A stretch of 64,000 nt of DNA from an uncultured Candidatus Saccharibacteria bacterium. Its GTDB lineage: Bacteria; Patescibacteriota; Minisyncoccia; Phycocordibacterales; DATGWK01. The stretch spans positions 6,924-70,923 of the forward strand of contig CAYRZH010000002.1 of the NCBI GenBank assembly GCA_964428845.1, in the 5' to 3' direction. Shown here piece by piece: positions 2,984 through 56,172 of the stretch (its first letter is position 1; each line of letters begins with the position of its first letter). A program made the position numbers and the translations under genes. The notes beneath the pieces are model-generated. The model was given only the letters and a program-made list of their open reading frames with translations, had not been told where the DNA came from and did not search any database.

Positions 2984-3021
2984 AAAAAAACGGCCAGAAT
3001 CCTCCTTAGAGAATCCTGGCC
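2984..3021 (-). terminator. intrinsic terminator (serves the minus-strand gene 3041-4051)
   Basis: GGCCAG..CTGGCC hairpin followed by a T-run on the minus strand. Confidence 0.5.
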
Positions 3022-3040
3022 GCACTGCTTCGATGATGAA

Positions 3041-4051
3041 CTACATGACTGATACGTTCTCGTCCGGATGGAATGCCTTCCGCAGTTCAGGCCTCTGATT
3101 CCACATCCGCACCGCCGTTCTCACAAGGTCGCGAATCTGGGGAAGCGTTCCCTGCAGACCGAGGACGTACATATGATGTGAGTCTGGCCGAAGCTGGAAC
3201 GTCACGTAGCTGACGGCGTCTTGGAGCATAACGCGGTCGTAGCCGCACATTTCAGCCGCCAGCACCTTCACCGACCCGAACTGGCCGGACGCTCCGCGAA
3301 ACTTTGCGCCGTCCAGGACTGCCTTCATTCCATTGAAGTAGACTTCATCCTGGAAGGTGATGCACAGCTCGTAGAGCATTCCGCCGATAGTGACGATGTC
3401 GTGATCCTTGTCAATCGCGCCGCGCGTCATGATCGAGGTGTCGAGCCAGAGGTTCTCATAGACATTGGCGCCTGTCTGGAGCTCCTCGAATCCCTGATCT
3501 GGTTCGCCGTAGATCGTAACGTGGACTGCACGATCACGGAATTCGCCGAATCTGGAATCAGGCGCGTCGTCGTTCTTCGTATCTGTGTACCACGCTTCGA
3601 CGGTGACCCAGACGATGTACTTCGTTTCCTTCCACACCGGATCGGAGTGCAGATAACCCGTGCCGTGCGCATTGAGGCGTTTGGACCTCCAGAGCACCCA
3701 CCAGGCATAAATCTCATCGAGACTTCGTTTGCGTTCCGCAGAGTTGCGCGGAAAGTTGAGCTGGTTGAGGATCTCGCCATCGGCGTCGATAGCGAATGCG
3801 TACTCGCCTCGGCGCATGACCTGATCCTTACGGTTGCCTTTGAGATGGAAGATACACGAGGAATCGCCGAGACCAACGTTGTCCGCTCTGCGATACATGA
3901 GATCTCCGTCCGCTTTTTCCACTCTGATGGTCAGATCATCAACCTTGACCCCGCGCTCGCCGTCGAAAGGTTCCATGCGGGACGCGATTATTCTTTCCAC
4001 GAAGGGATATTGCTTAAGCAACTCGCGGTTCTTCGAGGCCGTCGGCTTCAT
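3041..4051 (-). CDS. hypothetical protein (336 aa), GC-rich accessory gene
   Basis: ATG at 4051 preceded by an AGGAGGG RBS; about 58% GC against a ~40% background; no family recognised. Confidence 0.6.
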   Translation of the reverse strand: MKPTASKNRELLKQYPFVERIIASRMEPFDGERGVKVDDLTIRVEKADGDLMYRRADNVGLGDSSCIFHLKGNRKDQVMRRGEYAFAIDADGEILNQLNFPRNSAERKRSLDEIYAWWVLWRSKRLNAHGTGYLHSDPVWKETKYIVWVTVEAWYTDTKNDDAPDSRFGEFRDRAVHVTIYGEPDQGFEELQTGANVYENLWLDTSIMTRGAIDKDHDIVTIGGMLYELCITFQDEVYFNGMKAVLDGAKFRGASGQFGSVKVLAAEMCGYDRVMLQDAVSYVTFQLRPDSHHMYVLGLQGTLPQIRDLVRTAVRMWNQRPELRKAFHPDENVSVM

Positions 4052-4124
4052 TTCGTGCCCTCCTACGTTCCGTAGTTTTCAAATTGTTGGCGTTCCGCCA
4101 ACAGTCGGCCTACATCGGACGACA

Positions 4125-7924: not shown

Positions 7925-8242
7925 CTCCGCGGGTAGGATTCGAACCTACGACCAATCGCTTACATTTGCTCCAAGCTTTCGCTCGGTATGGACTATATCA
8001 TCATCCTTCACCTGGTGGGTGGTTTGGATGTGGGGCGCTTCGTTCTGCTCTTGCAGAACTACTCTCTTGCGAGATAGTCTCTGAACCTTTCCTTTGATAA
8101 TTAATCTGGGGACTTGGCTGCTGATTGCCCACGGCTTTACGTTTGGGTTTCCAGCAATTCACCTCATTTTTCAGCCCGTATTCCTACGGGAAGCTGCGTA
8201 ATTTCGACACAGGCGATCGCTCTACCACTGAGCTACCGCGGA
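7925..8242 (-). tRNA. tRNA-Asn(GUU) interrupted by a group I intron (exons 8242-8209 and 7962-7925)
   Basis: The 5' exon reads TCCGCGG TA GCTC AGTGGTA GAGC G ATCGC CUGU. The 3' exon reads UAA GCGAT TGGTC GTAGG TTCGAAT CCTAC CCGCGGA G. This gives a perfect 7-bp acceptor stem, a CUGUUAA anticodon loop and G73 discriminator (fits Asn); CCA is not encoded. Confidence 0.75.
7963..8208 (-). ncRNA. group I self-splicing intron (246 nt) in the tRNA-Asn anticodon loop
   Basis: The conserved core elements occur in the right order: P AATTGCTGGAAA (8159-8148), Q AATCAGCAGCC (8126-8116), R GTTCAGAGACTATC (8086-8073) and S GATGATATAGTCC (8002-7990). The 5' splice site follows a U, the intron ends in G, and a GCAG guide sequence can pair with exon CUGU (U.G). 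Confidence 0.75.
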
Positions 8243-8310
8243 ATATTATATTTTCTACAAACTTCAAAGAACGCTGAACATCATAGCAAAAACTCCTCTA
8301 TAATAAAAGC

Positions 8311-8544
8311 ATGTACATCAAAATCCGCGCCGTACCATCGGCTAAAAAAGAGCTGTTCGAGCAAGTCTCCAAAGACCACTTTAAGATTACTGTGCGCGAG
8401 AAGCCGAAGAACAACCAGGCCAATCAGCGCATCGTCGCTCTCGTGGCTTCCCACTTCAAGATCGCTTCAGGGAAGGTGAGAATTATTTCAGGCCATCATT
8501 CGCCAAGCAAAATTCTTTCAGTCGATATTGAAACAGTCGGTTAA
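8311..8544 (+). CDS. DUF167 / YggU-family protein
   Basis: MYIKIRAVPSAKKE....ITVREKPKNNQANQRIVALVASHF...GKVRIISG matches the YggU pattern. Confidence 0.65.
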   Translation: MYIKIRAVPSAKKELFEQVSKDHFKITVREKPKNNQANQRIVALVASHFKIASGKVRIISGHHSPSKILSVDIETVG

Positions 8545-54138: not shown

Positions 54139-54621
54139 ATGTTTAATTTAGCCGTTATTGGTCTATATGTTGTTTCTGGCCTTGCCGGTGATGCTATGCC
54201 TGCCATGCCGATTCCAACTGAAACATCTGTAAACCAGATTCAATTGGAAGCAAGGAAACAGGACGAGTCTAAAGAAATCACAACCGAAGCCTACGTTAAA
54301 AATTATTTCTCTGACACCCCGATTCTTGCCGAGGTTGCAAGATGTGAATCCCAGTTTAGACAGACTGACAAAAGTGGTCGTGTCATCCGTGGGAAAGCCA
54401 ATCGTTACGACGTTGGTGTCATGCAGATTAATGAGCTATACCACTTAGATAAGTCTAAGAATCTTGGCTACGACATCTATACTACAGAAGGTAACCTTGC
54501 GTATGCTCGCTACCTTTATGAAAAGGAAGGAGCACGCCCATGGATGGCCTCTTCAGGATGTTGGGCAAAGTTTAGAGAAATAGCTTTAAGCAACGGAAGT
54601 AATTTCGATCACACTCTCTAA
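54139..54621 (+). CDS. secreted lytic-transglycosylase/lysozyme-like domain protein
   Basis: Signal peptide/TM, then ARCESQF...GVMQINE, which resembles the catalytic ES..GLMQ motif of SLT-domain enzymes. Confidence 0.5.
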   Translation: MFNLAVIGLYVVSGLAGDAMPAMPIPTETSVNQIQLEARKQDESKEITTEAYVKNYFSDTPILAEVARCESQFRQTDKSGRVIRGKANRYDVGVMQINELYHLDKSKNLGYDIYTTEGNLAYARYLYEKEGARPWMASSGCWAKFREIALSNGSNFDHTL

Positions 54622-54675: not shown

Positions 54676-54844
54676 TTGTAAAGAGAGTGATTTTTATAAG
54701 TATTTTTTTATACAATCAAGCAAAATAAACAGATTGACACTGGTGGGGAAGGGGAGTAAATTCAAATGCGGAATCGAACATTGAATTTATAAAAAGTAAT
54801 CAAAAATACACACCGGGCTCTTGCCCAGAAAGGTTGAGTGAGAA

Positions 54845-55918
54845 ATGACGATTGTGGCGAGATCCCAGGCCGTTCTCCCGGTAAATGCCGAAAGTTCAAA
54901 CGACCTCCTCATCTCTGAATTTGCCCGCTATTTGGGTAAGACCCAGAAAAGAAGTCCTCATACAGTGATCAATTATTGCCGTGATGTGAAATCATTGGCA
55001 GGTGTTCTTTCGGACGAATTTGGAGAGGATGCCAGGCTCGCAACCATGTCAGCCGATGAGCTGAATGTATGCCTCGGTATTTTCAGGAACAATCTGGGTT
55101 ACAAAACAAATACCGTAGCAAGGAAGGTCTGCGCCCTAAAGGCTTTCTTCAAGTGGTTTGCGGAACATAGAGATGATGGGGTAGAAACGGGCCCTGTCGG
55201 ATTCCTCTCTGCACTTCGCGCGAAGAGACACAGAGAAACAATTTCCAGATTTCTGACTCTTTCCCATGTAACCAAACTGATGCGGTTTGGTGTAAATACT
55301 GGAATTGTATGCAGGGCGCGAGATACCTTGGCGATAAGACTCTTCCTGTTTACAGGAATTAGCTGTCGTGAACTTGTTGCTATCAATCTGGGTGATTTCA
55401 CGTTGGAGCGGGACGCAATTACTCGTAGGGTGGTGAAGATCGTCAGTGTCAGAGTCGGCCAAGCTCACACAATCTCACTCGACAGGCCCGAAATTCAAGA
55501 AGCATTGGTCGGCTACCTTAATCTCGTTTACCCCAAGTTTTTAGGGCAACCGAGTGTTGGCAGTAGTCATAGCTCTCTTCGCTCTCTTCCTCTTATGGTC
55601 AGTGGTAAGAATAGCAAAGTGAGGATAAAGGGCAGGTCTATAAGGAGGAATCTCCAAAAAATCGGGCGCAAACTCGGCATTAGCCAATCAGGCGTAGAGC
55701 TTGGTCCGACATCTCTTAGGCATCGGTTCGTCATCGATCGTCTGAAAGACCGCACTCCTCGAGCCGCAATATCTCAACTACTGGGCAAGCGACACGCTCA
55801 CTGTATATGGTGGCTAAATCGACTGGCTGCCGACATCGTCAATGCCGGTGCCCTGCAGGACAGTTATGGGGAAGGGGAAGTGGCCAAGCCACAAAATCAC
55901 CCTAAGCAAGTAAAGTGA
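54845..55918 (+). CDS. tyrosine recombinase/phage-integrase-family protein (catalytic Tyr not at the canonical position), GC-rich
   Basis: SAM-like core-binding N-domain (FARYLGKTQKRSPHTVINYCRDVKSL), box I TGISCRE, and box II SLRHRF..LLGKRHA. The HxxxxxxxxxY spacing is absent; about 53% GC. Confidence 0.55.
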   Translation: MTIVARSQAVLPVNAESSNDLLISEFARYLGKTQKRSPHTVINYCRDVKSLAGVLSDEFGEDARLATMSADELNVCLGIFRNNLGYKTNTVARKVCALKAFFKWFAEHRDDGVETGPVGFLSALRAKRHRETISRFLTLSHVTKLMRFGVNTGIVCRARDTLAIRLFLFTGISCRELVAINLGDFTLERDAITRRVVKIVSVRVGQAHTISLDRPEIQEALVGYLNLVYPKFLGQPSVGSSHSSLRSLPLMVSGKNSKVRIKGRSIRRNLQKIGRKLGISQSGVELGPTSLRHRFVIDRLKDRTPRAAISQLLGKRHAHCIWWLNRLAADIVNAGALQDSYGEGEVAKPQNHPKQVK

Positions 55919-55934
55919 AAACCAATTTACCATC

Positions 55935-55960
55935 GGACCCTCCCAGTTGGGCGGGTTTTT
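55935..55960 (+). terminator. intrinsic terminator
   Basis: CCCTCCC agtt GGGCGGG followed by TTTTTT. Confidence 0.55.
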
Positions 55961-56172
55961 TCATAAATAAATTATTTTTTATTCGCTAAGAAGATCAGAT
56001 AACTCAAATCTCAACGTCTATCTTTTATGGTAAGGGAAGGGGTTTAGAGAGAGTATACAAACGTCGCACAATATATCTTTTGCGACACTACCTATATAAT
56101 AAACAAGGATTTTAAAAATACCACTTCCCCACTCGAAAAAAAGATTTTTTGAGCTTCTTCAGATTGATAAAT

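Follow-up and report, generated by a model that had tools for sequence, protein, structure and literature searches.

The DNA analysed here (the window) is a stretch of 64,000 nucleotides from an uncultured Candidatus Saccharibacteria bacterium (contig CAYRZH010000002.1), and the gene of interest in it is an open reading frame (ORF) whose product resembles the Xer tyrosine recombinases. The ORF at 54845-55918 on the plus strand is intact and encodes 357 aa with the motifs TGISCRE, SLRHRF and LLGKRHAHCIWW and a single late Tyr, Y341. An initial annotation, made from the sequence without database searches, had called this ORF with TGISCRE, SLRHRF and one late Tyr, and all of these were present in the translation. 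The Xer-like gene is the last gene before a dif-like site, at the point where the orientation of genes and of motifs similar to the FtsK-orienting polar sequences (KOPS) converges, and this position defines the locus. The two elements at its centre are as follows:

54845-55918, plus strand: Xer-like ORF, with a core-binding (SAM-like) domain at about residues 23-107 and a degenerate catalytic domain at about residues 137-316
56063-56086, no strand assigned: candidate dif site of 24 bp, GTCGCACAA TATATC TTTTGCGAC, 144 bp downstream of the Xer-like gene

Using profile searches and alignments, we have shown that the protein is a member of the XerC/D family by fold and is, as judged from its residues, incapable of tyrosine-recombinase catalysis. 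The integrase SAM-like N-terminal domain, which had been recognized by the initial annotation, is supported by the Pfam profile PF02899 (E 4.8e-11, 43 bits with a cut-off of 22.3). The Pfam profile PF00589 reaches 18 bits with a cut-off of 27.1, and its alignment stops at profile position 156 of 172, short of the Tyr. The best NCBIfam model is XerC, with 74.7 bits against a cut-off of 335 (E 7.9e-21); this alignment stops at position 265 of 295 and also ends ahead of the nucleophile. The scores for XerD (56.7 against 330) and XerA (57.8 against 220) are likewise far below the cut-offs. To read the catalytic columns, we used an alignment of 131 sequences, made up of the query and 130 sequences taken from the 150 best representatives of an exhaustive HMMER search. 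The majority residues in these columns are R (116 sequences), K (89), H (99), R (128), H (115) and Y (114). At these positions, in place of the R-K-H-R-H-Y of the family, the Xer-like protein has S173, Q206, T289, R292, K315 and L324. Arg-II (R292) is the sole catalytic residue kept, and the other five of the six are replaced. The pairwise HMMER alignment to E. coli XerD (1a0p) concurs for box I and HxxR. When the alignment is anchored on the C-terminal motif instead (DIVNAGALQDSY against THVNAAQLLDVY), A329 comes to lie at the Tyr position with a 5-residue insertion, so that there is no Tyr at the nucleophile position in either alignment. The column of Y341 belongs to a separate C-terminal motif, Y...HPRA, in which 79 of the 131 sequences have Tyr. 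Thus, the initial observation that no catalytic Tyr is canonically placed holds, with L324 or A329 there, and the loss is wider than supposed, since it extends to five of six residues; in none of the profile alignments is the catalytic position occupied by a Tyr. The boxes proposed at the same time were only partly right. TGISCRE is present as box I, but its Arg sits two residues past the catalytic column, which is occupied by S173. SLRHRF is present as box II and keeps R292, but the residue taken for the second His is a Lys (K315).

We also modelled the protein with AlphaFold2. On the Xer alignment the model has a mean predicted local distance difference test (pLDDT) score of 80.8, with values above 90 across the core-binding domain. 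The best Foldseek matches of this model are XerA, IntI, Cre, XerH and XerD, each with a probability of 1.00; the model depends on the Xer alignment, and the fold match is therefore partly circular. From the single sequence the pLDDT is 32, and the prediction is confident only with the Xer alignment. As modelled, the protein keeps the two-domain fold and has lost the chemistry. In the sequence comparison with PDB chains, chain 14 of 9i5v (401 aa, deposited as 'ribosome-associated translation inhibitor RaiA') was found to align with the core-binding domain of Xer and also with its HxxR box (PHVLRHSF); this chain may be an Xer-like/RaiA fusion or may be mislabelled.

The Xer-like protein is nearly an orphan: among 5.8 billion proteins it matched itself and three weak relatives. 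In an exhaustive search of 1.84 billion representatives, the best non-self match had an E-value of 8.9e-16 and 30% identity. The metagenome contigs that encode this best-match cluster, P0005/P0154 (340 aa), turned out to have the gene order of the window. Both have TrhO, the SLT-like gene (161 aa in the ortholog contigs) and the Xer-like gene in this order, followed on the opposite strand by a glycoside hydrolase (GH), EamA, GH1, a small ORF, M23 and GltX. The proteins of neighbouring genes are 56-75% identical between the two lineages, and the Xer-like pair is 26.6-27.9% identical. The catalytic signature of the positional ortholog is L-A-K-R-I-I, which means that it is dead as well. Its last Tyr lies at or before residue 257, its last 83 residues are free of Tyr, and its PF00589 alignment also ends early. 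The isoelectric point (pI) of the ortholog is 10.1; the window protein, which is strongly basic, has a pI of 10.3. A comparison of the locus with relatives, as the initial annotation had proposed, thus revealed the same gene order again, with an equally dead ortholog. A stop-free run of 340-357 codons at the local base composition would occur by chance with a probability of about 1e-8, and the remaining five frames of the Xer-like gene hold 9-22 stops. Two intact ORFs have been kept through near-saturating divergence, which indicates selection for a protein that is not a recombinase.

The gene is present in the lineage of locus L008 and absent in more distant relatives, which have other cargo between the SLT-like and M23 genes. 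In the nearest named genome, an uncultured Saccharibacteria metagenome-assembled genome, TrhO is 57% identical and synteny is common on the upstream side only, which places the organism among the Patescibacteria, in the Candidate Phyla Radiation (CPR). Among the 131 nearest Xer-like representatives, 25 retain three or fewer of the six catalytic residues, perhaps partly owing to alignment error. About a quarter of the top matches are degenerate to this extent, and therefore degenerate Xer-like proteins are not rare in metagenomes. The proteins P0006, P0008 and P0016 are without the HxxR His and the beta-hairpin Lys and yet pass PF00589. We considered whether these three extend a wider family of dead Xer proteins linked to dif; they are encoded away from the core in unrelated contexts and give no evidence of such a family.

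The dif-like site came to light as a conserved non-coding block when the intergenic stretch separating the converging Xer-like and GH genes was aligned between the two lineages. It consists of two inverted 9-bp arms, complementary at 8 of 9 positions, around a 6-bp spacer, which is how Xer core sites are built. The first 17-18 nt, GTCGCACAATATATCTT(T), are nearly invariant in 19 distinct related loci, and the right arm is more variable. The SLT-like proteins of those 19 loci are only 47-75% identical, so the conservation of the core exceeds that of the flanking genes. The core occurs once per locus, always where plus-strand genes meet minus-strand genes, and in the 64-kb window it is unique at up to 3 mismatches. 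The cumulative GC skew of the window peaks at 55-56 kb, where the genes switch from plus to minus. Taken alone this point is weak, because the skew follows the gene strand throughout the window. The candidate resembles the dif of E. coli (GGTGCGCATAA TGTATA TTATGTTAAAT), and the central region of B. subtilis dif, TATATA, is similar to the TATATC spacer. Archaeal dif has an 11-6-11 layout. An interpretation of the core as a hairpin RNA or terminator was rejected: the stems are unconserved in about half of the lineages, and it is the sequence rather than the pairing that is conserved. Rfam searches of the core and its inverted flanks gave nothing credible. Judging from its architecture, conservation and position, and from the polar motifs, mobile elements and recombinase genes described below, the 24-bp core at 56063-56086 is very probably the dif site of the chromosome.

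Several lineages have the core embedded in a long palindrome with 25-30 nt per arm and a lineage-specific sequence (L015 6770-6860, L032 950-1050, L033 4225-4300 and L036 5730-5830). The arms, for example TCTATATATAGAT/ATCTATATATA and GATAAGCATG/CATGCTTTATC, extend beyond the KOPS-like motifs. These palindromes might act as cruciforms or bidirectional terminators, or they might be scars left by the integration of elements.

KOPS-like motifs point at the core from both sides. The E. coli KOPS consensus is GGGNAGGG, and 32 of its 33 occurrences across the loci are aimed at the core. In the window there are seven copies on the plus strand to the left of the core, two on the minus strand to the right and none in the opposite orientation. 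The related pattern GGGRAGNGG is aimed at the core in 46 of 47 occurrences. Five of the six window copies of GGGAAGNGG lie within 54746-56129, no more than 1.4 kb from the core, and many lineages have one copy of this motif on each side of the core, in inverted orientation. The copies nearest to the gene and the core are the following:

54745-54754, plus strand: KOPS-like GGGGAAGGGG (includes GGGNAGGG), toward the dif-like site
55868-55883, plus strand: two overlapping KOPS-like motifs GGGGAAGGGGAAGTGG in the 3' end of the ORF; second D3 copy
56034-56042, plus strand: KOPS-like GGGAAGGGG, 20 nt to the left of the core
56121-56130, minus strand: KOPS-like GGGGAAGTGG, inverted, 34 nt to the right of the core

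D3, a 20-nt repeat with copies at 54736-54755 and 55859-55878 (17 of 20 positions identical), is the sole repeat flanking the Xer-like gene. We rejected it as a pair of att sites: D3 is the KOPS-like GGGGAAGGGG motif, which flanks the core and points at it in many lineages.

The same core is used by mobile elements. The exact 18-mer was found in 27 contigs of IMG/VR (among L047-L073), mostly 4-6 kb long, and usually as the full site GTCGCACAATATATCTTTTRCGAC. Two of these contigs, L065 (2201-7631) and L069 (2068-7517), have two core copies at a distance of 5.4 kb; one of the copies is complete, and the right arm of the other is hybrid. Only L065 was scanned, and there the copies flank genes for Zot-like and rolling-circle Rep proteins. 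These 5.4-kb elements look like integrative mobile elements exploiting Xer (IMEXs) of the filamentous-phage (inovirus-like) type that belong to CPR bacteria and are integrated at dif in the manner of CTX-phi. Recombinase genes also adjoin the core. The core of L040 is followed after about 70 nt by a canonical CPR Xer gene, and the same Xer in L020 has all six catalytic residues. In L068 (10665-12033) and L048 (3344-4755), a recombinase gene precedes the core by 419-462 nt on the same strand. Its product of 310 aa has the complete R-K-H-R-H-Y set (PF00589 81.5 bits for L068), and in L068 the gene stands beside DNA methyltransferase-like and helicase-like genes, which were identified by inspection of the sequence only. 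L048 and L068 appear to be islands with an integrase of their own that targets dif.

The Xer-like ORF has a GC content of 49.0% and a GC content at third codon positions (GC3) of 48.6%; the window has 44.4% GC and the neighbouring genes 39-43%. Other parts of the window reach 52-56% GC. Therefore the value of the ORF is raised and not extreme, and the initial description of the gene as GC-rich is correct to a modest degree only. Two putative expression signals frame the gene:

54734-54762, plus strand: predicted sigma-70-like promoter of the Xer-like gene, TTGACA-17-TAAATT (consensus scan, 10 of 12 matches)
55937-55961, plus strand: terminator-like hairpin CCCTCCC-AGTT-GGGCGGG with a T-run, just past the stop codon (direct sequence reading)

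The spacer of the predicted promoter holds the GGGGAAGGGG motif. The hairpin is absent from the list of the automatic scan; the ortholog locus has an analogous hairpin with a T-run.

The gene to the left of the Xer-like gene had been described initially as lysozyme-like:

54139-54621, plus strand: SLT/EtgA-like (lytic-transglycosylase-like) gene, 160 aa, hydrophobic N-terminus

This assignment is only partly supported. The profile scores are weak (Pfam SLT E 0.01, below threshold; EtgA E 0.15), but the motif CES...GVMQINE is invariant in 11 relatives. Homologs occur in 36 related metagenome loci, and the SLT-like gene is conserved on the chromosome in at least 19 related lineages; in this clade it is the left-hand marker of the dif region. 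Together with the dif-like core, a small membrane ORF and M23, it makes up a frame that many CPR lineages have in common (L012-L043). Inside this frame, between the SLT-like and M23 genes, relatives have UmuC/UmuD (UmuDC)-like, LexA-like, VKOR/DsbA-like or PIN-like genes, or none (L039, L033); these labels come from reading ORF translations and not from profile searches. The cargo differs between relatives, and therefore the flanks of dif are a hotspot of accessory genes. The cargo that the window has in common with the L008 lineage consists of the Xer-like gene and the GH-EamA-GH1 block. The flanking genes in the window encode TrhO, a MacAB-like ABC system, glycoside hydrolases (GH, GH1) and an EamA transporter, and further neighbours encode an M23 peptidase, GltX, MurG, an S41 protease and an RNase T-like exonuclease. 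The PADLOC defence models gave no match, and neither Tn7 genes nor rRNA genes were found within the window.

Elsewhere in the window, a group I intron was found at 7970-8315 on the minus strand (Rfam 82 bits; flanks at about 7925-8360). Just 3' of it lie the T-arm and acceptor end of a tRNA (GGTTCGAATCC...). The intron option of ARAGORN gives an intron-containing tRNA-Asn(gtt) with other intron bounds, and the identity of the tRNA is uncertain. The most GC-rich kilobase of the window (56%) is at 3001-4100, where long ORFs overlap on opposite strands at 3041-4051 (minus) and 3221-4075 (plus); the minus-strand ORF is without a Pfam match.

What could be the role of a recombinase homolog without catalytic residues? 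We lean towards the view that the gene encodes a catalytically dead, fold-keeping, basic Xer paralog retained beside dif, serving as a non-cutting dif binder, a modulator or an organiser of the terminus. We prefer a non-cutting DNA-binding protein to a prophage leftover because five of six catalytic residues are lost and a dif-like site lies 144 bp away. The initial suggestion of an inactive or domesticated recombinase agrees with this, given the five replaced residues and an ORF that is intact both here and in the ortholog. The dead Xer may bind DNA and may act at dif; the active Xer of this lineage would then be encoded elsewhere in the genome. The dead protein would bind DNA at or beside dif without cleaving it. 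It could be a non-catalytic partner or competitor of the active Xer and tune dimer resolution, or in the same role it could modulate the integration and excision of elements that target dif. It could also be a factor that organises the terminus.

A narrower form of this reading, which we put forward only tentatively, is that the dead Xer arose from a recombinase, became a factor dedicated to binding dif and now controls access to the site, either by occupancy or by non-productive complexes with the active Xer. In one version it would be a 'dif guardian' limiting the inovirus-like IMEXs and the recombinase-bearing islands at the same 24-bp site. In the other it would be a terminus organiser of the SMC/FtsK type. 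If the gene does encode such a factor, an arms race with the elements that exploit dif would account for its very fast evolution.

Several observations weigh against a retained dif-associated protein. Only two lineages have an Xer-like gene at this position, and therefore its conservation rests on one comparison. At about 27% identity the orthology is founded on synteny and not on sequence, and it is conceivable that two dead genes were captured independently at the same spot. The DNA of L008-L011 is identical across the ortholog gene, which leaves no variation for a ratio of nonsynonymous to synonymous substitution rates (dN/dS). No other tyrosine recombinase, and thus no active Xer, was found in the 64-kb window. 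As for the motifs, control G-rich 8-mers are already aimed at the core 82% of the time, and therefore the KOPS polarity is partly background, its excess being real but moderate (p about 0.01). GC3 is raised in the window copy (48.6%) and not in the ortholog (36%). One metagenome contig of 4.5 kb splits the ortholog into two ORFs, P0156 and P0155, of 202 aa and 97 aa, and about 40 residues are lost from the region between the two; the split may reflect a pseudogene or disrupted allele, or an assembly error.

The last two points also speak for the main rival explanation, according to which the gene is a functionless, slowly decaying integrase relic of an island or IMEX-type element once integrated at dif. 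The layout fits such an origin, since the gene is followed by the core on the same strand after 144 nt, as it is after 419-462 nt in L048 and L068. In relatives, accessory cargo is found at the flanks of dif as at a hotspot, and the divergence is very fast. However, neutral decay would bring stops and frameshifts, and there are two intact ORFs of similar length. The pI of both proteins exceeds 10, their core-binding domain is predicted with confidence, and the predicted promoter and terminator are still there. A second dif-like site, such as a decayed attL, was not found between the SLT-like gene and the Xer-like ORF, where the best match of 13/24 is at the level of chance. We therefore consider a relic of this kind rather unlikely.

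An active recombinase, the lineage's own Xer working through an unusual active site or through a nucleophile at another position, for example Y341, is much less probable still. The gene does adjoin the dif-like site, as xerS and archaeal xerA do, and the xerH gene adjoins its dif site as well. R292 is kept, and there is an Arg two residues past the box I position. However, five of the six positions are S, Q, T, K and L, and Y341 stands in a separate conserved column, with no counterpart in the Tyr-free C-terminus of the ortholog. The scores are also far under the cut-offs of the Xer equivalogs.

The initial annotation had proposed a prophage remnant composed of an integrase and a lysin-type gene. 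Matches to PHROG integrase families, the SLT-like neighbour and an M23 peptidase nearby are what such a remnant might show. Apart from the Xer-like recombinase and the generic M23 peptidase domain, PHROGs gave nothing: the SLT-like gene, GH and small ORFs had no match. No phage structural or replication genes were found near the Xer-like gene, and no att-type direct repeats flank it, as the initial annotation had stated; yet a site of the recombinase core type lies 144 bp downstream. The SLT-like and M23 genes are conserved chromosomal genes framing dif in many relatives, the neighbours are housekeeping genes, and the block is syntenic in a diverged lineage. The prophage proposal was accordingly abandoned as highly improbable. 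The weakest explanation, to which we give hardly any credence, is a sequencing or assembly frameshift that hides a normal Tyr C-terminus: the +1 frame at about 55795 reads SDTLTVYGG*, loosely like HSDLSTTQIYTH, but it ends after 12 codons, frame 0 regains the family's C-terminal motif VNAxxLxDxY...HP, the replacements of R by S, K by Q and H by T are in frame and far from that point, and the ortholog is dead too.

We compared the preferred reading, a dead Xer retained beside dif, with known systems. The window protein shares with XerC/XerD (TIGR02224/TIGR02225; PDB 1a0p) the two-domain architecture, the best profile family and the C-terminal 'Y...HP' motif, and its gene adjoins a dif-like core whose inverted arms enclose a 6-bp spacer. 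In contrast to XerC/XerD, it reaches 75 bits against 335 and has lost five of six catalytic residues, so it cannot be an equivalog; it also has about five extra residues round the Tyr helix and a longer linker before HxxR. Linkage of the gene to dif is common to the single-recombinase modules XerS/difSL, XerH/difH and archaeal XerA/dif. In streptococci the XerS recombinase gene is physically linked to dif at the terminus (PMC1914069), and difSL was also found as a conserved short sequence at a switch of skew and orientation (PMC1914069). The recombinases of these modules are active, whereas the linked gene here is dead, and a canonical Xer adjoins the same core only in another lineage, L040.

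Closer in state are recombinase homologs with a crippled active site. Streptococcal YnbA, an 'XerD' with unusual active-site motifs, is conserved across its clade and lacks the extreme C-terminus and two residues of R-H-R-Y (PMC1914069). It is inactive on dif, does not bind difSL and was described as closer to phage integrases (PMC1914069). Like the window protein, YnbA is a conserved recombinase homolog; unlike it, YnbA was not reported next to dif, and the two are likened here by description and not by sequence. In the Tn6022-like Tn7 element, the inactivated tyrosine-recombinase domain of TnsF is reused as a sequence-specific DNA binder and bender (PMC10293859). TnsF differs in having N-terminal zinc fingers, tandem core-binding domains and TnsABC/TniQ at comM, none of which are found here. 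Features of a TnsF/YnbA-type class that are found in the Xer-like protein are a recombinase fold, lost catalytic residues and an ORF intact in two lineages. B. subtilis XerD is stated to unload SMC near dif (XDS sites), outside dimer resolution (PMC11840125). B. subtilis XerD differs from the window protein in being a fully competent recombinase. Karaboja and colleagues reportedly found in 2021 that SMC unloading by XerD needs no catalysis.

A limited literature check found no work linking Xer or dif with CPR bacteria, and within that check the 24-bp core appears to be the first dif candidate named explicitly for a clade of the Patescibacteria/CPR. Such a site could serve as a terminus marker for orienting CPR genome assemblies. 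Together with the inovirus-like prophages and islands that appear to target it, the candidate dif may give a handle on the entry of mobile elements into reduced genomes. Few cases are known in which inactivated tyrosine recombinases survive as DNA-binding proteins (TnsF, YnbA), and their roles are mostly unclear. The dead Xer of this lineage is tied by its position to a highly conserved DNA site, which is therefore the obvious candidate for its ligand.

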